Shown here piece after piece: positions 41,254-50,296 of a DNA stretch of 64,000 bases (within the stretch, counting starts at the first letter, position 1; every line of letters starts with the position of its first letter). A model generated the notes under the pieces. That model saw nothing but the letters and a program-made list of their open reading frames with translations, made no database searches and was not told where the DNA came from. The DNA is from an uncultured bacterium. Its GTDB lineage: Bacteria; Abyssobacteria; SURF-5; CBDUXP01. The stretch is from assembly GCA_965371225.1 (NCBI GenBank), contig CBDUXP010000001.1, positions 146,111-210,110 of the forward strand, given 5' to 3'. A program made the translations under genes and the position numbers.

Positions 41254-41388
41254 GGCGCGTCAGCCTAGCAGACCGCCCGCAGGGGCGCCGCGGGGCCGCT
41301 CCGGCCGCCTCGGGTATACTGCCGCGCGCTGGTGGTGGGGATGGACGGTGGTTTAGACGGCTCAGAGGGGCTGGAGGAGTACACGGTA

Positions 41389-42177
41389 ATGCAGTTACAA
41401 GACAAAGTCGCGGTGGTGACCGGCGGGGCGTCGGGCATGGGCGAGGCCATGGTCCGGCGGTTTGCGGCCGAAGGGGCCAAAGTCTACGCGGGCGACGTGA
41501 ACGGGGATGGGGTCGCGGTGCTGGCGGAAGAGCTGGGCGGCGACGTGAAGAGCATGCGCAGCGACGTGACGCAGGAAGCGGACGTGCGCGCCCTGGTGGA
41601 GTCGGCAGTGGACGAGTGGGGCCGGCTGGACATCATCTGCAACAACGCGGGCATCGAAATCCTGGCGCCCACTATCGCGACCAGCAATGAGGACTGGGCC
41701 CGGGTGCTGGCCGTGAATCTGACTGGCGTGTTCTACGGCTGCCGGGCGGCGCTGGAACAGATGGTGCCCAACGGCGGCGGCGCGATCATCAACACCGCCA
41801 GCGTGGCGGGCACGTGGGCGGCGCCGGGGCTGGCGGCCTACGCGGCGACCAAGGGGGGCGTGGTGCAGCTCACGCGCGCCATGGCGCTTGAAAACGCGCC
41901 GTTCGGCGTGCGGTGCAACGCCATCTGTCCCGGCCTAATCGATACGTCCATGTACGACCGCACGGTCGCAGCCGTGGGCGACCCGGCCGCGGACGAGCGG
42001 CTGCAGGCGGCGGTCCCCGCGGGACGCCTGGGGCGACCGGAAGAAATCGCGGCGCTCGCCGCGTTCCTCGCCAGCGACGCGGGGGCGTACATCACCGGCC
42101 AAGCGCTGGTCATCGACGGCGGGCTAACGCTGCGCACGCTGCAAGCGAACCTGGGCCTCCAGCCGCAGGAAGCGTAG
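41389..42177 (+). CDS. SDR-family oxidoreductase
   Basis: TGGASGMG cofactor motif. N[AI]G plus a YxxxK region. RBS GGAGGAG 9 nt upstream of ATG 41389. Confidence 0.75.
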   Translation: MQLQDKVAVVTGGASGMGEAMVRRFAAEGAKVYAGDVNGDGVAVLAEELGGDVKSMRSDVTQEADVRALVESAVDEWGRLDIICNNAGIEILAPTIATSNEDWARVLAVNLTGVFYGCRAALEQMVPNGGGAIINTASVAGTWAAPGLAAYAATKGGVVQLTRAMALENAPFGVRCNAICPGLIDTSMYDRTVAAVGDPAADERLQAAVPAGRLGRPEEIAALAAFLASDAGAYITGQALVIDGGLTLRTLQANLGLQPQEA

Positions 42178-42235: not shown

Positions 42236-42874
42236 CTACGGGGCGGGGTTCGGGCGGCCGGTGAGGGCTTCGAGGGCGGCTTCGGCCGCCTTGGCGGCTT
42301 CGATGATCTCGGCTTCGCCGCCGCCGAGGTAGAGGCGGCCGAACGCGCCAAAGGTCATCACTTCGAGCACATTGATGGGTGACGCCTTCTCCGCCTCGTT
42401 ACATGCGATGGCGGCGTACCCCGCGGGGTGCGTCTCCAGGATGTACAGCGCGTCGTTCTTCAGCAGCATGTCCCCGTGGCGCATCCGGTTGATGAGCGCG
42501 CTCTGCCGGTCGGTCATGCCGGTGATGATCTCGCGGGACACGACGCGCGGCGCGAGCCGGTCCTCGTCCGTCAGTCCGAAGTAGTCGAGGATCGCGGCGC
42601 CCGCAGCGCGAATCTGGCCCTGGTCCTCGTGGTGCATCTCCAGGAGGCCGAAGGCGCGCTCGACGATCTGCATGCCGGGCACGACCGCGGTCTGCTTGAG
42701 CGCCACGTCGGTCGCCGTGTTGATCTGCAGGCCGGGCGCGATCTCCACGTAGAGCGCCGCTTGCTGTTCGAGCGGCAGGAACCCCTGCGAGACGGTTTGA
42801 ATGAACGACGCGAGTTGCGGCTGCAGGATGTCGATGTACGTGAAGGTACGAAGGTCGATGCCGGCGGCGCTCAT
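42236..42874 (-). CDS. BMC-T shell protein (tandem, non-permuted BMC domains)
   Basis: Two internally homologous halves. The second (…ILETHPAGYAAIACNEAEKASPINVLEVMTFGAFGRLYLGGGEAEIIEAAKAA…) aligns by eye to the BMC-H at 46096..46404. ATG 42874 is 1 nt after the aldolase stop. RBS GGAGG. Confidence 0.55.
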   Translation of the reverse strand: MSAAGIDLRTFTYIDILQPQLASFIQTVSQGFLPLEQQAALYVEIAPGLQINTATDVALKQTAVVPGMQIVERAFGLLEMHHEDQGQIRAAGAAILDYFGLTDEDRLAPRVVSREIITGMTDRQSALINRMRHGDMLLKNDALYILETHPAGYAAIACNEAEKASPINVLEVMTFGAFGRLYLGGGEAEIIEAAKAAEAALEALTGRPNPAP

Positions 42875-42875
42875 G

Positions 42876-43745
42876 TCATGCCTCCGCGCGTGCCAGGGCG
42901 CGGCCCACTGCATCGACGATAACTTGCATCGTCTGCTCGTCCACGTTCGGGATCGTGGCGGCCACCGGCGCGGCCGCTGCCGGCGCACACACCGCCGGTC
43001 CTGGCGTCGGCGACGGGTCGTCTGCCGGGATCGCGAACGGTTGCAGCTTCCCGTTCGGGCACGCGTTGCAGTGCTCGCAGCCCAGGGCCACGGGGCGCCG
43101 CGGCAGGCCCAGGCCGTCGCCGATTTCCTGCAGTTGGCGAATCTGTTCCGGGGTCAGCGGTTGCACCTCGCCGAGCTGGCGGGCGGCGTGCGTAATCTGC
43201 GCCACGTGCTCCATCCGTTCGAGCTTCATGTACGCGTCCATCAGGTCCACACCCACGGTGAGGCTGCCGTGGCGTTCGAGGATCATCGCATCGAAATCGC
43301 CGATGTACTTTTTGATCGCCGCCGGTACTTCGTCGGTCGTGGGCGCGCTGTACGGCGCCGTGGGGATCACGCCGAACGTGAACACGATCTCGGGCAGCAG
43401 GCATTGCGCGAGGGTCTGGCCGGCGACGGAAAACGCGATGCAGTACGTGGGGTGCATGTGCACCACGGCGTTCACGTCCGGCCGCTCCTCGTAGACCGCC
43501 ACGTGCATGGGCATCTCCGTGGTGACGGGGTGCGCCCCCGCCATGCGCCGGCCGCGCATGTCGCAGATCACCAGATCGCTCGGCTTGAGGAATCCTTTGT
43601 GCAGGCCGCTCGGCGTGGAGAGAATCCGGTCGCGGCCGAGCCGCACGGACACGTTGCCGTCCGTGGCCGAGAGCCATCCGCGCTCGTAGGCCCAGCGGCA
43701 GACTTCGCAGATTTGCGCGCGCAGCGCGTGCAAGGGTTGGATCAT
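42876..43745 (-). CDS. Class II aldolase/adducin-family aldolase (FucA/RhaD-like) with C-terminal extension resembling a BMC encapsulation peptide
   Basis: Zn-ligand region VVHMHPTYCIAFSV. 289 aa versus about 215 for FucA. The tail has a Pro/Ala-rich linker followed by amphipathic helix EQTMQVIVDAVGRALARAEA. Confidence 0.65.
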   Translation of the reverse strand: MIQPLHALRAQICEVCRWAYERGWLSATDGNVSVRLGRDRILSTPSGLHKGFLKPSDLVICDMRGRRMAGAHPVTTEMPMHVAVYEERPDVNAVVHMHPTYCIAFSVAGQTLAQCLLPEIVFTFGVIPTAPYSAPTTDEVPAAIKKYIGDFDAMILERHGSLTVGVDLMDAYMKLERMEHVAQITHAARQLGEVQPLTPEQIRQLQEIGDGLGLPRRPVALGCEHCNACPNGKLQPFAIPADDPSPTPGPAVCAPAAAAPVAATIPNVDEQTMQVIVDAVGRALARAEA

Positions 43746-44023
43746 GCGGGCGCGCCCGTGCGGTCAATCGCGTCGACGATCCCGGCGATTACACAGTGGA
43801 CAGGCGATTGCGCGTCTCCGACCACCTGACGGGCGGCGTTCCCCTCGGGCACGATCAGCACGAGGTCCCCCTCGCCGGCCTGCACGGAATCCACCGCGAG
43901 CATGGTCTGGCCATCCGCCCGTCCGTCGGCGTCCAGCGGTTGCACCACCATTATCTTGTGGCCGCGGTAAATGGGATGCTTCACCGTGCTCTGCACGTTC
44001 CCGACGACGGTGGCGAGCTTCAC
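43742..44023 (-). CDS. BMC-P vertex protein (EutN/CcmL/PduN family)
   Basis: VKLATVVGNVQSTVKHP…GHKIMVVQPLD…VDSVQAGEGDLVLIV is a typical pentamer signature. GTG start overlaps the upstream stop (GTGA). Stop overlaps the aldolase ATG (ATGA). Confidence 0.65.
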   Translation of the reverse strand: MKLATVVGNVQSTVKHPIYRGHKIMVVQPLDADGRADGQTMLAVDSVQAGEGDLVLIVPEGNAARQVVGDAQSPVHCVIAGIVDAIDRTGAPA

Positions 44024-44307
44024 GGGGCGGCCTCCACCGGCATGGCGTAGAGCGAGTCGACGATGCCGACGATGCCCGAGTCCACCGGCACGAACCACTC
44101 GGGCAGCGCGTAACACGCTTCGCGCCCGTGGCAGAGCATCACGAGATCGCCCGGCCCGCTCTGCTCGGCCCCGTCGGGTACCACGATGGGTTCGCCCTTG
44201 GCGTGCCGCTCGTGATCCACCGGCTGCACGACCAGCAGCTTCACGCCGGCCAGCCCCGGCGTCTTACGCGAGGCGACGACGCGCCCGATGACTTGCGCGA
44301 GATGCAT
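44020..44307 (-). CDS. BMC-P vertex protein (EutN/CcmL/PduN family)
   Basis: MHLAQVIGRVVASRKTPGLAGVKLLVVQPVD…GPGDLVMLCHG. ATG 44307 lies just after the ALDH stop (44310). Confidence 0.65.
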   Translation of the reverse strand: MHLAQVIGRVVASRKTPGLAGVKLLVVQPVDHERHAKGEPIVVPDGAEQSGPGDLVMLCHGREACYALPEWFVPVDSGIVGIVDSLYAMPVEAAP

Positions 44308-44309
44308 GG

Positions 44310-45749
44310 TTACACGATCCGGAAGTGGTCTTTGAGCGTGCAGCGCCGCTCGCGGGTGAAGTGGACCGCGGTGGTCAGCCCCTCGCCCGTCGGACTCGCA
44401 ATGGTGAACGAGGTGTAACCCTCGCCGCGGTAACCGAGGCCGGACAGGCTCGACCCGTTTTTCACAAAGATGCTCGTATTGATGACCGCCGCCATCCGGC
44501 TGAGGCTGTCGATATTGCGCGAGTGCATCACCGCCGTGTGGCCGAACCCGTGCTCTGCCTCCACCGCCAGGTCGATGGCGGTATCCACGTCGGGCACGCG
44601 CACGAGCGGGATCAGCGGCATCATGAGTTCCATCTGCACCAGCGGATGCTCGAACGGCACTTCGGCCAGGATCATGCGCAGGTCGTGCCCCGCGTCGACC
44701 CCGATCTCCCGCAACAGGCAGCACGCGTCCCGGCCCACCCATGCGCGATTGATGGCACCGTGCGGGTTATCCGGCGACGGCGGCTCGGTCACCACCACTT
44801 GCGTGATGGCATCGATTTGCGCCTCGGTGAGTTCCACCGCGCTAATCGCTTTGAGTTCCGCCTTGAGGTCGTCAGCAATACTGTCGACCGCGAGGATCTC
44901 CTTTTCCGCCACGCAGATGATGTTGTTGTCCGTGGTGCAGCCTTCGATCAGAAACTGCGCGGCCGAGGGCAGGTCGGCCGTCTCGTCCACCACCGCGGGC
45001 GGGTTGCCCGGGCCGGCGGCGATGACCTTTTTGTCGCTGTTCATCGCCTCGCGCACCACGCCCGGCCCACCCGTCACCACGAGCAACCGAACGGCCGGGT
45101 GGCGCATGAGGGCTTGCGCGGTGGGGATCGTCGGTTCGGCCACCGAGGTCAACACGTTGGCCGGCCCGCCGGCGCGCTGAATAGCGCGGTTGAGAACATC
45201 GATGGTGAACAGGGACACGGCCGTCGCCGACGGGTGCGCGTTGAACACGACCGCGTTTCCGCCGGCGACCATCCCGATGGCGTTGCAGAGGATCGTCTCC
45301 GTGGGATTCGTGCAGGGCGTGATGGACCCGATGACGCCGTACGGGGCCCGCTCGGTCAGCATGAGGCCGTGGTCGCCGGTGCACGCCGCCGTCCGCAGGA
45401 TCTCCGGCCCCGGGGTCTTGTCGATGACGAGCCGGTTCTTGATCACCTTGTCCTCGGCGCGCCCGAGCCCCGATTCGTCCACCGCCATTTGGGCGATGGC
45501 GGGCACGATCTCATGCGCCGCGCGGCGCATCTCCGCGATGATGCGGGTCCGCCGCTCGAGCGACTGAGCGCGGAGGGCGGCCGCCGCGTCGTGCGCCGCC
45601 TGACAGGCGTCGTCCATCCGGGTAAACACCCCCTGATACCCGGCGGACGATTGCGCGGCGGCGACCGCCCCATTCCCCTCCGCGGTCAGGCGCGCGACCA
45701 CCTGCTCCACGACGGCAGTGATCTGGTCGCGGCTCAGCGTCGCGCGCAC
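44310..45749 (-). CDS. CoA-acylating aldehyde dehydrogenase (EutE/PduP-like) with N-terminal encapsulation-peptide-like helix
   Basis: ALDH superfamily with the EutE/PduP pattern (…IGSITPCTNPTETILCNAIGMVAGGNAVVF…, …CTTDNNIICVAEKE…). N-terminal DQITAVVEQVVARL helix plus a Gly/Ala/Ser linker before the catalytic domain. GTG start. RBS GAGG. Confidence 0.75.
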   Translation of the reverse strand: MRATLSRDQITAVVEQVVARLTAEGNGAVAAAQSSAGYQGVFTRMDDACQAAHDAAAALRAQSLERRTRIIAEMRRAAHEIVPAIAQMAVDESGLGRAEDKVIKNRLVIDKTPGPEILRTAACTGDHGLMLTERAPYGVIGSITPCTNPTETILCNAIGMVAGGNAVVFNAHPSATAVSLFTIDVLNRAIQRAGGPANVLTSVAEPTIPTAQALMRHPAVRLLVVTGGPGVVREAMNSDKKVIAAGPGNPPAVVDETADLPSAAQFLIEGCTTDNNIICVAEKEILAVDSIADDLKAELKAISAVELTEAQIDAITQVVVTEPPSPDNPHGAINRAWVGRDACCLLREIGVDAGHDLRMILAEVPFEHPLVQMELMMPLIPLVRVPDVDTAIDLAVEAEHGFGHTAVMHSRNIDSLSRMAAVINTSIFVKNGSSLSGLGYRGEGYTSFTIASPTGEGLTTAVHFTRERRCTLKDHFRIV

Positions 45750-45759
45750 CTCTCAGCCC

Positions 45760-46074
45760 TCACACTCCGGCGGGTTCCGCCGCCGGATATTTCTCGAACA
45801 CCACCTCGCCGTCCAGGTCCCACGTGTCCACGATGGCCATGATGACCGCATCCACGGGCCGCGCATCGGTGAGGTCCGTCTGCCGCGCGGCCGAGCCGGT
45901 GGCGTACAACACCACTTCCCCAACGCCGGCACCGACGGCATCGACCGCCACGTGATATCCGTCTGCGGCCTGCGCGCGCACATCCAGGTTGCGCACGAGC
46001 AGTAATTTCAAGTCGAGGAGCCGCTCATCCTTGCGCGTGGCAACGACGGTGCCCTCGACGCGCCCAAACAGCAC
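45760..46074 (-). CDS. BMC-P vertex protein (EutN/CcmL/PduN family)
   Basis: MLFGRVEGTVVATRKDERLLDLKLLLV…VGAGVGEVVLYATGSAARQ. Confidence 0.65.
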   Translation of the reverse strand: MLFGRVEGTVVATRKDERLLDLKLLLVRNLDVRAQAADGYHVAVDAVGAGVGEVVLYATGSAARQTDLTDARPVDAVIMAIVDTWDLDGEVVFEKYPAAEPAGV

Positions 46075-46095: not shown

Positions 46096-46404
46096 CTACG
46101 CGGCCGGCAGCGCGGCGGTCGCCGTGGGCCCGCGCCCGAGCGGCAGCCGCTCGTCGACATTCTCGTGGGGCCGCGGGATCACGTGGACGCTCACCAGCTC
46201 GCCGACCTTTTCGGCCGCGCGGCTGCCCGCCTCGGTGGCCGCTTTCACGGCAGCCACGTCGCCCCGGACCACCGCGGTGACGTATCCCCCGCCGATTTTC
46301 TCGTAGCCCACGAGTTCGACCCGCGCGGCTTTCGCCATGGCGTCCGAGGCTTCGACCATACCGACGAAGCCGCGGGTTTCGATCATGCCCAATGCATCTG
46401 ACAT
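46096..46404 (-). CDS. BMC-H hexameric shell protein (PduA/EutM/CcmK-like)
   Basis: [56 protein letters not shown] is the canonical BMC domain. RBS GGAGGAG. Confidence 0.85.
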
Positions 46405-46583: not shown

Positions 46584-47231
46584 CTAATTTGCGGCCGCTT
46601 CCCGGGCCTCTTCACCAAACGGAATACCTTCCACGCGTTCAAGCGCTGCGACGGCCGCTTCCGCCGCGGAGTCGATCTCCGCTTCGCCGCCGGACATGTG
46701 CAGCCGGCCGTACGCGCCATACGGGCGGACTTCCACCAGCTTCACGTCCGCCGCCTTCTCCGCCTCGTTCGCGGCGTACACCGCGTAGCCCGCGGGCTCC
46801 GTCTCCAGAATGAACAGGGATTCTCCCGGCAGGATCATCGACCCGTTGCGGTTCCGGTTGATGAGCTGGCATTGGTAGGGCTCGACGGCGCGGATGATCG
46901 TGTTCGAGACGATGTTCGGCTTCAGCCGGTCGGTCTCTTGCAGGCCGATGTGCCCGAGCACGGCGCGGCCCGCGCTGCGCACCTCGCCCTTGTCCATGTC
47001 GTGCACCTCGAGCAACCCGAACGCGCGTTCCACGATCTGAATGGCCGGCTGACAGGTGGTGGCCTTCAGCGCCACGTCGAGGACCCGATTGATCGCCAAG
47101 CCCGGGGCAATCTCCACGAACAGGGACCCCACGCCGGGGACCGGCAGGAAGCCCCGGGCCGTCGCCCCCATGAACGACGCCAACTGCGGCTGCAGGCTGT
47201 CCAGGAAGATGTAGGTGCGGAGCGTAGTCAT
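46584..47231 (-). CDS. BMC-T shell protein (tandem BMC domains), paralog of 42236..42874
   Basis: Same two-repeat architecture (…[23 protein letters not shown]…, …[55 protein letters not shown]…). Start taken at MTTLRTY (ATG 47231). Confidence 0.5.
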
Positions 47232-47241
47232 GCCGGGGGCC

Positions 47242-48120
47242 TCAATACTGTTTGCGCACAATCGCGTCTTCGATCTTCTTCTGGTTGCGGTACATGCGCT
47301 GGGGATTGCGCATGCCCAGCAGGACGAAGAGCGCGTCGATGATGGCGGCCTGGGCCAGCCGGCTCGCCAGCGCCTCGGCCCGGTACCGGGTTTCGCTGGA
47401 CGCCGTGACCAGCACCACGTCGCTCACCTTCGTGATGGGCGAGAGTGAGTTGTTGGTGATGGCGATCACCCGCGCCCCGGCCTGCGCCGCGACGCGAATC
47501 GTGTCGATGGGATCCGTGGTGCTGCCACTGTGCGACACGGCCAGGACCACGTCGCCCTTCCCCAGCAGGGCGGCCTCCATCATCTGCAGGTGGCTGTCCG
47601 TCTGGACGCGCACCGGCAGCCCGAGGCGCAGCAGCTTGTTATACGTGTCCGTGACCACGGGGCCCGAGGTGCCCACGCCAATGACGACGATGGTCCGGGC
47701 ACGGAACAGCAAATCCACCGCCCGCTCCACGGCGGCGGGATCTAGCACGTCCAGCGTGTCTTGAAGCGTCTGGATGTTCAGGCCGAACACCTTGCGCACC
47801 ACCGTGGACGTGTCGTCCGACGCTTTCACGTCTTCCAGCAGGCTCTGCAGGGGCGTCAGCCGGTCCCGCGCCAGCGCGATCTTGAACTCCTGGAAGCCCG
47901 AATAGCCCAGGGTGCGGCAGAAGCGCATGACGGTGGCCTCGCTAACGCTGCTGCCGGCCGCCACCTCGTTGATCGCCTGCCCCAGCAGCGCCTCCGGCTC
48001 GGCGGCCACATAGGCGCCGACTTTCCGCTCGGCCTTGGACAGACTGGCCTGGGCGCCGCGCACGCGGGCCAGGCAACCGCTGCCCAGGGGACCGGCGGTA
48101 CGCGCCTGGGTCTTAGCCAT
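47242..48120 (-). CDS. RpiR/MurR-family transcriptional regulator (HTH_6 + SIS domain)
   Basis: N-terminal HTH (…[54 protein letters not shown]…) and SIS domain (…[14 protein letters not shown]…[12 protein letters not shown]…). ATG 48120 with GAGGA 8 nt upstream. Confidence 0.7.
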
Positions 48121-48171
48121 GGGACCGTTCCTCCACAGCCCCACCCTAGCAAGCGTGGGCGGCCAGGTCAA

Positions 48172-48679: not shown

Positions 48680-48725
48680 TATACTCCGCGGCATGCGGCG
48701 CCCCCTGACGTTTCGGGAAATGCTG
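48680..48725 (+). repeat. 46-nt exact direct repeat (copy 1) spanning TATACT box, 7-nt spacer and first 11 codons of SGNH gene
   Basis: tatactccgcggcATGcggcgccccctgacgtttcgggaaatgctg is identical at 48680..48725 and 49513..49558. Confidence 0.8.
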
Positions 48726-49454
48726 CGCGTGTATCTCGCGTGCTTGACGGGGTTGGCGCTGATGCTGAATCGCGACCAGTTTCCGGCCTGGGCGCTCCCC
48801 GAACTCCGTGGCCTGGGACCCATCGTGCGTGAGGCCCACCCGTGGCTCGGGGAACAACGGTCTCGCTCTGCGTCGTTCCGGGGCTCCGGCGTTTCCCTCT
48901 TAGGCAAAGCCCATCTTGTGGTCGGCGATTCCCAAGCGTATTACTGGCCGTGGTCCGCGGACATCATCGGTATCCCTGGCATTATGGCCGACCAGATGCG
49001 TGAGCGGTTTCTTCAGGAGACAGCGAAGCGCCCGTTCCACTATGAACTGATCGTGCTGTGGATTGGTACGGCCCATTTCCAGCGCGGGTGCGACGTCCCC
49101 TCGTACGTTGACGGCGTAGCCGAGACGGTGGCGGCCGCGCGGCAATTGGGTGACCACGTGATCGTCCTGACGGGGATGCCCCATGAGGAATGGCAGGCGG
49201 CCCGGTATATCAAGCACAATCCGGACACGCCCGCACAGCGCGATACGCTTGCGCAATCGGCGGAGGCGGTTCGCGCGCTGCGGGCGCACCTGCCCGATGT
49301 GTTCGTCTTTGACATGGGGGCGTTCCGCGCCCCGTTAGCAGCGGCGGACCTCCTCGACACGTATTACGATGACGCCGTACATCTGTCGTCAACCGGCTGG
49401 GAGGCGTTGGGGGACGAGCTCGCCACCGCCGGCGTTTACGTAAGTCCCGACTAG
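48693..49454 (+). CDS. SGNH/GDSL-like hydrolase (copy 1 of tandem pair)
   Basis: Block-I-like LVVGDSQ, N-terminal TM/signal (LRVYLACLTGLALML), and a C-terminal DxxH-like region (DDAVHLSSTGWE). Confidence 0.5.
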   Translation: MRRPLTFREMLRVYLACLTGLALMLNRDQFPAWALPELRGLGPIVREAHPWLGEQRSRSASFRGSGVSLLGKAHLVVGDSQAYYWPWSADIIGIPGIMADQMRERFLQETAKRPFHYELIVLWIGTAHFQRGCDVPSYVDGVAETVAAARQLGDHVIVLTGMPHEEWQAARYIKHNPDTPAQRDTLAQSAEAVRALRAHLPDVFVFDMGAFRAPLAAADLLDTYYDDAVHLSSTGWEALGDELATAGVYVSPD

Positions 49455-49512
49455 CCGCGTTCCCCGCCGGGAAGCTGCGTAGTAGCGGCCACCGTGGTAC
49501 CGGCGTGCCCGG

Positions 49513-49558
49513 TATACTCCGCGGCATGCGGCGCCCCCTGACGTTTCGGGAAATGCTG
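49513..49558 (+). repeat. 46-nt exact direct repeat (copy 2)
   Basis: Identical to 48680..48725. Confidence 0.8.
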
Positions 49559-50296
49559 GGGGTGTATCTTGTGTGCTTGGCGGGCTTGGCGGTCACGCTC
49601 AACCGCAACCTGCTTCCCACGTGGGTGCGGCCGGAGTTCTACGCCCTGGAGGAGACCCTCAATGCGGCCCACCCGTGGCTCGCCATCCCGCGCCCGCACC
49701 GCTCGCCGTTCGTGTCCACGCGCGTCGCCATCACGGGGCACTCCTGTCTCGTCGTCGGCGATTCGCAGGCGATCAAGTGGCCCTGGTGCGCGGACGTGCT
49801 GGGCTTTGCCGGCGGCAACGCCATGCAGATCTTCCGGCGGATGCGCGTGGAGTTGGAGCACCGCCAACCGCAGTACGCCCAGATCGTGGTCATGGTCGGC
49901 ACGGCCCACTTTCAGGGCGGCGCCAACGTGCGCACGTACGTCGACGGTGTGGCCAAGATGGTCGCCTTGGGCCGGGAGAGCGGTGCGGAGGTTTTCGTGG
50001 TGACTCCGATGCCGTATGACGAACGCCAGATCGAGCGCTTCCTGGCCGCGCATCCGCACATCCAGGGGAAAGGGATGCGGCGCGACACCCTCGCCCACAC
50101 GACGGAAGCTGCCGCGGCCTTGCGCCTGCGCCTGCCCGACGTGGTGATGTTCGACTTAGGACAATTTCACGCCATGCTGACGGGGAGCGGCCGGCGGGAG
50201 GCCTTGTACGTGGATGGGCTCCATCTCACCCCCGAGGGCTGGTCGCTCTTGGCCGATGAGCTCGCCGCGGCCGGGATTCAAGTGACGGACTTCTAA
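49526..50296 (+). CDS. SGNH/GDSL-like hydrolase (copy 2 of tandem pair)
   Basis: Paralog of 48693..49454 (LVVGDSQ, …DGLHLTPEGW…). The first 11 codons and 13 nt of leader are identical to copy 1. Confidence 0.5.
   Translation: MRRPLTFREMLGVYLVCLAGLAVTLNRNLLPTWVRPEFYALEETLNAAHPWLAIPRPHRSPFVSTRVAITGHSCLVVGDSQAIKWPWCADVLGFAGGNAMQIFRRMRVELEHRQPQYAQIVVMVGTAHFQGGANVRTYVDGVAKMVALGRESGAEVFVVTPMPYDERQIERFLAAHPHIQGKGMRRDTLAHTTEAAAALRLRLPDVVMFDLGQFHAMLTGSGRREALYVDGLHLTPEGWSLLADELAAAGIQVTDF

Follow-up and report, generated by a model that had tools for sequence, protein, structure and literature searches.

Why should a class II aldolase that is encoded among bacterial microcompartment (BMC) shell genes extend well beyond the end of its catalytic fold? 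The question is raised by a 64,000-nucleotide stretch of DNA (the window) from an uncultured bacterium of the GTDB lineage Abyssobacteria (assembly GCA_965371225.1, contig CBDUXP010000001.1, positions 146,111 to 210,110 of the forward strand). Based on the list of open reading frames (ORFs), Pfam, alignment with FucA, and Foldseek, an ORF on the minus strand (42876..43745, in window coordinates, which are used throughout) was annotated as coding for a FucA-like class II aldolase of 289 amino acids (aa). The last ~60 residues of this protein are likely a C-terminal encapsulation extension, by which the aldolase, together with a similarly tagged aldehyde dehydrogenase, would be loaded into a microcompartment resembling that of Haliangium ochraceum (HO).

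Catalytic core and extent of the extension

The catalytic core was assigned to aa 1 to 218 (43092..43745, minus strand) by Pfam, FucA alignment, and Foldseek. The Aldolase_II domain covered aa 11 to 185 (Pfam, E = 2.4e-50), and aa 8 to 202 aligned with Escherichia coli FucA (215 aa). The AlphaFold2 model superposed on FucA structures over ~208 columns, with a TM score of 0.89 and a root mean square deviation of 2.2 Å (Foldseek; 1E4C), and none of the solved relatives in the Foldseek comparison reached past the end of the FucA fold. The zinc ligands H96, H98, and H159, as well as E77, were invariant in the alignment of the aldolase family. The predicted PF00596 fold, with its three-histidine metal site and catalytic Glu, identifies the protein as a FucA-like class II aldolase.

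The initial annotation, made from the sequence alone, had described the aldolase as about 75 aa longer than FucA; the computed difference was 74 aa (289 versus 215), ~70 aa of which lay beyond the FucA fold. The interval that it singled out (42876-43150) corresponded to aa ~199 to 289 plus the stop codon, and all three tail strings that it quoted were found exactly at the mapped coordinates. Since high-GC DNA gave rise to many long spurious ORFs here, the tail could be an artefact without function, a read-through into DNA that happens to lack stop codons, given a genome with 69% G+C. This explanation is hardly credible. The G+C content at third codon positions was 0.84 in the tail and 0.89 in the core, a match that marks the tail as coding rather than high-GC read-through, and the next gene started 1 nucleotide past the aldolase stop codon (TGAcATG, 42872-42878, minus strand). 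In addition, the protein sequence of the tail was conserved across 118 homologues, which came from several phyla.

Anatomy and conservation of the tail

Just past the position at which FucA ends, the alignment placed a CEHCNAC motif (C-x2-C-x2-C; aa 223 to 229, 43059..43079, minus strand). It was followed by a Pro/Ala-rich linker (PNGK...ATIP, aa 230 to 266, 42948..43058, minus strand), delimited by composition and AlphaFold2 and made up of 62% Pro, Ala, Ser, and Thr, and by the terminal segment NVDEQTMQVIVDAVGRALARAEA (aa 267 to 289, 42879..42947, minus strand), a putative encapsulation peptide according to AlphaFold2 and its hydrophobic moment. The AlphaFold2 prediction, run with a 118-sequence alignment, was confident over the core; the predicted local distance difference test score (pLDDT) was 66 and then 50 over aa 221 to 240, fell below 50 at aa 237 to 258, and rose to ~90 in a helix at aa 270 to 288 (42882-42938, minus strand). 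The 15 residues from 273 to 287 had a helical hydrophobic moment of 0.573, the maximum for the whole protein, and the hydrophobic face of the helix was formed by M273, I276, V277, V280, and L284. The amphipathic terminal helix on a flexible linker that had been read from the sequence alone was thus borne out, and a nonhelical tail was not predicted.

Conservation was compared along the protein in the 118 full-length homologues, all with at least 49% identity to the window aldolase. Mean pairwise identity was 0.71 in the core (aa 1 to 215; length range, 201 to 235), 0.57 in the Cys segment (aa 216 to 232; 12 to 24), 0.07 in the linker (aa 233 to 266; 0 to 93), and 0.32 in the helix (aa 267 to 286; 16 to 20). 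A C-terminal pattern of hydrophobic residues (hydrophobic-hydrophobic-x2-hydrophobic-x3-hydrophobic-x3-hydrophobic) was present in 107 of the 118 homologues, compared to 4.6% of shuffled tails, with acidic residues before it (N-cap) and basic residues after it. A conserved helix on an unconserved linker of variable length is how a textbook encapsulation peptide is built. The features by which such peptides are defined (Kinney 2012; Aussignargues 2015) were found together in this tail, namely, a terminal position, a helix of ~19 aa, amphipathicity, and a poorly conserved linker, and the extension was present in BMC-associated orthologues and not in non-BMC homologues.

Association of tailed aldolases with shell genes

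A single-protein scan of the genome collection returned no relative; when species-representative genomes were instead scanned with an alignment, 44 loci were recovered. Shell genes adjoined 22 of 32 helix-bearing aldolases and 0 of 15 helix-less aldolases (Fisher test on pooled loci with enough flanking sequence, P = 4.6e-6, uncorrected for shared ancestry). The gene order of the window, together with a tailed aldolase, recurred in “Candidatus Eiseniibacteriota,” in many Nitrospinota, and in some Nitrospirae genomes, and on a 255-kb metagenomic contig the aldolase was 79% identical, the operon order was kept, and synteny extended well beyond the operon. An absence of the tail from orthologues in BMC loci would have spoken against a targeting role; the syntenic BMC loci carried tailed aldolases. 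Three relatives with ~50% identity (L030 to L032) ended at 208 to 211 aa, kept all catalytic residues, and had no shell genes nearby, and more distant FucA-like genes likewise lacked nearby shell genes.

Several observations weigh against an encapsulation extension. For ten of the helix-bearing aldolases (nine from myxobacteria or deltaproteobacteria), no shell gene lay within 8 to 10 kb. The amphipathicity of the helix was only modestly unusual (P ~ 0.05, compared to shuffles of the same 21 residues), and its pLDDT of ~90 in the window aldolase fell to only 62 to 65 in a homologue with a minimal tail (P0112), in which AlphaFold2 predicted the terminal helix at residues 229 to 245. In the catalogue of BMC loci, the extension of the HO aldolase is described no more firmly than as “possibly an EP” (encapsulation peptide) (PMC8217296), native encapsulation peptides often load cargo inefficiently (PMC6787980), and the literature searched contained no experiment on the tail of an HO-type aldolase.

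Some of these observations would suit a terminal helix that is intrinsic to the aldolase, as an autoregulatory lid, an inter-subunit contact, or an oligomerization helix, with the BMC context being secondary. The C-terminal tail of FucA closes over the active site, the pLDDT of ~90 is unusually high for a free peptide, and the ten helix-bearing homologues without neighbouring shell genes would be expected. This explanation is nonetheless unlikely: an unconserved linker of 0 to 93 aa is hard to square with a defined docking geometry, the ~50%-identical non-BMC relatives without the helix keep all catalytic residues, the high pLDDT is not retained in the homologue, and the co-encoded dehydrogenase, which has an unrelated fold, has a similar helix.

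The ten orphan tailed aldolases are probably satellite loci of microcompartments, because aldolase satellite loci are known for HO type I and a SPU3 BMC is present elsewhere in the genome of Minicystis rosea (both from the catalogue, PMC8217296). In six myxobacterial and deltaproteobacterial orphan loci with no shell gene within 9 to 10 kb (L048 [Minicystis rosea CP016211.1, 1791419-1812315], L007, L008, L017, L020, and L024), the Cys motif, linker, and helix were all kept. The Minicystis aldolase adjoined TRAP-transporter genes (TAtT, DctQ, and DctM).

That neighbourhood, along with the C-terminal position of the amphipathic helix and the basic residues that follow it in most homologues, is what a membrane-targeting helix of the MinD/FtsA style might lead one to expect, with the aldolase held at the inner membrane. 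The residues of the hydrophobic face, however, are small and aliphatic (V/I/A), the N-cap is acidic, and neither an aromatic nor a lysine-rich flank is present; moreover, the aldolase gene appears translationally coupled to shell genes, and its partner, the dehydrogenase, carries the same signal although it is soluble. Membrane targeting is very improbable.

Dehydrogenase helix and proposed mechanism

The operon that contains the aldolase also encodes an acylating, PduP-like aldehyde dehydrogenase of 479 aa (44310..45749, minus strand; Pfam). Its N terminus reads MRATLSRDQITAVVEQVVARLTAEG, an amphipathic helix, within which RDQITAVVEQVVARLT (aa 7 to 22, 45684..45731, minus strand) is a putative encapsulation peptide. 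The spacing of hydrophobic residues in this helix (i, i+3, i+4, i+7, i+8, i+11) was that of the aldolase helix, and the motif DQIxxIVxRVVxRL was kept in 13 syntenic loci. Two unrelated enzymes of one operon, therefore, carry a similar tag at opposite termini.

Under an encapsulation role, the disordered Pro/Ala linker (aa 230 to 266) would tether the ~19-residue helix (aa 270 to 288), whose hydrophobic face would, by analogy with characterized microcompartments, bind the lumen-facing side of shell proteins; the N-terminal helix of the dehydrogenase is a possible alternative or additional partner. Inside the shell, the aldolase may split a sugar phosphate into dihydroxyacetone phosphate and an aldehyde, which the dehydrogenase may then convert to acyl-CoA before it escapes. 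The encapsulation of the aldolase, its binding to the shell, and the substrate are inferred.

The window thus places an HO-like microcompartment in an uncatalogued high-GC environmental genome, with both enzymes apparently tagged for loading. It lends support to the view that the aldolase is the signature enzyme, and the source of the aldehyde, in a kind of compartment that is still described as enigmatic in function. Engineering in the field uses the H. ochraceum shell as its main chassis, and a natural C-terminal tag for the HO shell family could for that reason be a useful reagent.

Operon structure and locus type

The aldolase ORF was gene 8 of a compact nine-gene operon on the minus strand, in which Pfam recognized BMC, three EutN_CcmL, Aldedh, Aldolase_II, and RpiR regulator families. 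The first gene was predicted to encode an RpiR-family regulator with HTH_6 and a SIS sugar-phosphate-binding domain (47242..48171; Pfam). It was followed by a double-stacking BMC-T (gene 2, 46584..47231; closest to HO-5816/HO-T2, E = 1.4e-88), a BMC-H hexamer protein (gene 3, 46096..46404; closest to HO-5815, E = 6e-46), and the first BMC-P of a triplet (gene 4, 45760..46074; Pfam). The aldehyde dehydrogenase (gene 5) separated this BMC-P from the second (gene 6, 44020..44310; Pfam) and third (gene 7, 43742..44029; Pfam, EutN/CcmL pentamer). Downstream of the aldolase, gene 9 was predicted to encode a double-stacking BMC-T with a tandem BMC domain (42236..42874; closest to HO-T3, PDB 5V76, E = 3e-86). 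The start codon of the aldolase overlapped the stop codon of the upstream BMC-P (ATGA, 43742-43745, minus strand), which, with the 1-nucleotide gap before the downstream BMC-T, suggests translational coupling across the BMC-P, aldolase, and BMC-T junctions. Tandem-repeat and promoter/terminator scans of the operon region gave nothing relevant.

The locus type was judged from the shell and the enzymes. Pfam detected neither PTAC nor acetate kinase nor lactaldehyde reductase in the operon or in the ~12 kb on either side of it, nor were DeoC, RpiB, or phosphotransacylase within ~12 kb. Since the shell was of the HO type, closest to that of Haliangium ochraceum, and PTAC and acetate kinase were not found nearby, the locus is HO-like, corresponding to type II of the 2021 catalogue, and a PVM-like label was rejected.

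Hosts of HO loci in the 2021 catalogue were mainly Deltaproteobacteria (PMC8217296). RpiR-headed HO-like type II loci (L001 to L035) were seemingly common in Nitrospinota and were also found in Nitrospirae and “Candidatus Eiseniibacteriota.” In several of them (L002, L004 to L006, L010, L012, L013, L015, L022, L025, and L035), ~1.5 to 2 kb lay between the aldehyde dehydrogenase gene and the BMC-P pair. In Nitrospinota and Nitrospirae, this extra coding space often held one or two divergent BMC-H-like genes, with 29 to 36% identity to the window BMC-H; none of these was present in the window.

Cysteine motif and Cys115

The string CEHCNAC, reported in the initial annotation as a Cys-rich segment preceding the linker, was exact. 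The segment had a mean pairwise identity of 0.57, and of 120 homologues, 118 had the motif (consensus, P-C-[DE]-H-C-N-A-C-P); the other two were truncated. Judged by its conservation, the Cys segment is an element separate from the flexible linker, and it does not form part of the targeting signal. Within the homologue family, C223, C226, and C229 were invariant, as was a cysteine in the core, C115 (codon at 43401..43403, minus strand; alignment).

A further cysteine, Cys253 (codon at 42987..42989, minus strand; alignment), lay inside the linker in an [AVL]-C-A-[PG] context and was found only in the window aldolase and its six closest relatives, to which a ferredoxin-like C-x2-C-x2-C...C-P pattern was thus limited. 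A complete ferredoxin-type [4Fe-4S] motif was rejected as a feature of the family, the fourth cysteine (Cys253-Pro) not being conserved.

The invariance of C223, C226, and C229, and this ferredoxin-type resemblance in the window aldolase and its six closest relatives, raise the question of whether the whole extension, from CxxCxxC through Cys253-Pro to the helix, forms a small metal or iron-sulfur domain that includes the helix. Such a domain is quite improbable: 94 of the 118 homologues have no Cys downstream of the C-x2-C-x2-C motif, no Fer4-type domain was matched by Pfam in the aldolase, and the segment between the motif and the helix is predicted to be disordered and is unconserved. Distant relatives, moreover, can have either the motif or the helix without the other. 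A HMMER scan of 1.84 billion cluster representatives yielded 148 single-domain relatives with 30 to 51% identity, among which a loose regular-expression classifier, whose counts are approximate, assigned both motif and helix to ~14 representatives, the helix only to 30, the motif only to 5, and neither to 86. One helix-only protein adjoined BMC-H and two BMC-P genes. The three motif-only proteins with usable flanks lay outside any BMC context, and because the motif occurs in helix-less aldolases outside BMC loci, the putative Cys site would predate recruitment to the microcompartment.

Among the 219 core columns, C115 was the one most strongly associated with the Cys motif in these relatives (16 of 19 with the motif versus 33 of 129 without it, P = 1.3e-6). 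Each of the three motif-bearing relatives without C115 had a fourth cysteine in the tail, e.g., C-x2-C-x2-C-x2-C. The CxxCxxC segment is an older feature of the aldolase subfamily and, with Cys115, is probably a metal-binding site, possibly of the Cys4 type. AlphaFold2 confidence was low at the motif in the window aldolase (pLDDT, 66 to 50) and in the minimal-tail homologue (50). In the loop at aa 111 to 120 that contains C115 (43386-43415, minus strand), pLDDT was 82 and 73 in the two models, with the surrounding core above 90; this dip is consistent with a conformation that depends on an unmodelled metal, the tail, or a neighbouring subunit.

C115 aligned with FucA Ile111, two residues before Tyr113, and entries for the FucA Y113F/Y209F mutant were among the Foldseek matches. 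Joerger and colleagues (in 2000) are reported to have found the aldehyde pocket of FucA to be lined by Tyr113 together with two residues from the mobile C-terminal tail, Phe206 and Tyr209. A Cys4 site linking the segment just beyond the FucA end to this loop would be coherent, and it is possible, if less likely than not, that Cys115 and Cys223, Cys226, and Cys229 bind zinc or an iron-sulfur cluster and so pin the tail over the entrance to the active site. If they did, the HO-type signature aldolase could be metal or redox dependent. Binding of a metal or cluster by the motif would redraw what has been taken as the linker of BMC aldolases, and it may bear on the control of activity. The motif together with C115 was the only element not found described; no account of cysteines in BMC aldolase tails was found in the literature, which is not proof that there is none.

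Relatives of ~416 to 445 aa (P0147, P0153, P0167, P0187, P0207, P0229 to P0231, and others) matched the aldolase twice and look like tandem-duplicated class II aldolase domains.

Genes flanking the operon

A short-chain dehydrogenase gene on the plus strand (41332-42177) converged on the end of the BMC operon and encoded no obvious encapsulation peptide; in the locus with the 79%-identical aldolase (L045), a short-chain dehydrogenase gene likewise stood at the end of the operon. Beyond it, the window and L045 had in common genes for His_Phos_1, radical SAM, SNase, epimerase, BolA, and enoyl-CoA hydratase. Just upstream, on the regulator side, were two tandem paralogous SGNH/GDSL hydrolase genes (48693-49454 and 49505-50296, plus strand), whose products had near-identical, signal-anchor-like N-terminal sequences (MRRPLTFREML...).

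Comparison with known systems

Escherichia coli FucA (PDB 1FUA and mutants) resembled the window aldolase in fold (TM score, 0.89; 30% identity), zinc-binding His triad, and catalytic Glu. It differs in that its chain stops at residue 215, its tail being short and mobile, in having no Cys motif, linker, or helix, and in carrying Ile at the position of C115. The N-terminal encapsulation peptides of PduP, PduD, and other aldehyde dehydrogenases share with the aldolase tail a short amphipathic helix, a linker, and a presumed mode of action, whereas they occupy the other end of the protein, lack sequence homology to it, and, in the case of the Pdu peptides, have been tested experimentally.

Closer parallels are found on other BMC aldolases. 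When 23 class II aldolases associated with BMCs were aligned with 12 controls, C-terminal encapsulation peptides of ~17 aa were present on 21 of the 23 (Aussignargues et al. 2015, PMC4594438), and such peptides have also been described on the aldolases of ACI, MUF2, MUF3, and SPU5 loci (Sutter et al. 2021, PMC8217296). Because C-terminal encapsulation peptides on BMC aldolases were thus described in 2015 and 2021, the tail of the window aldolase restates a known feature; in itself it is real but ordinary and adds little. The aldolase peptides from PVM, from PVM-like, and from GRM5 loci are likewise C-terminal amphipathic helices of ~17 to 19 aa on PF00596 family proteins and are missing from non-BMC homologues. 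The comparison with aldolase C termini of PVM-like loci that the initial annotation had proposed gave the same position and helix length as those published (PMC4594438) and a linker within their range: the published linkers span 23 to 81 aa, and that of the window aldolase measures 37 aa if counted from the Cys motif or ~48 aa if counted from where the core ends. The published linkers are described as having no sequence conservation, whereas the linker region of the window aldolase begins with the invariant C-x2-C-x2-C. The loci differ as well, in that PTAC, acetate kinase, and lactaldehyde reductase of PVM loci were not found within ~12 kb and the window shell is of the HO type. SPU5 is an alternative label, by virtue of an aldolase with a C-terminal encapsulation peptide and an HO-like dehydrogenase; the SPU5 PduS/PduT pair is not in the window.

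The closest system is HO type II of H. ochraceum, to whose shell the BMC-H, the two double-stacking BMC-T, and the BMC-P triplet of the window were most similar, and HO dehydrogenases always have an N-terminal encapsulation peptide (PMC8217296). The HO shell set comprises BMC-H, a BMC-P triplet, two double-stacking BMC-T, and one single-layer BMC-T (Sutter et al. 2021). As for differences, no single-layer BMC-T of the HO-T1 type was seen in the window operon, an HO-T3-like gene is located in the main operon rather than in a satellite, the operon begins with an RpiR regulator gene, and syntenic relatives are found in Eiseniibacteriota, Nitrospinota, and Nitrospirae.

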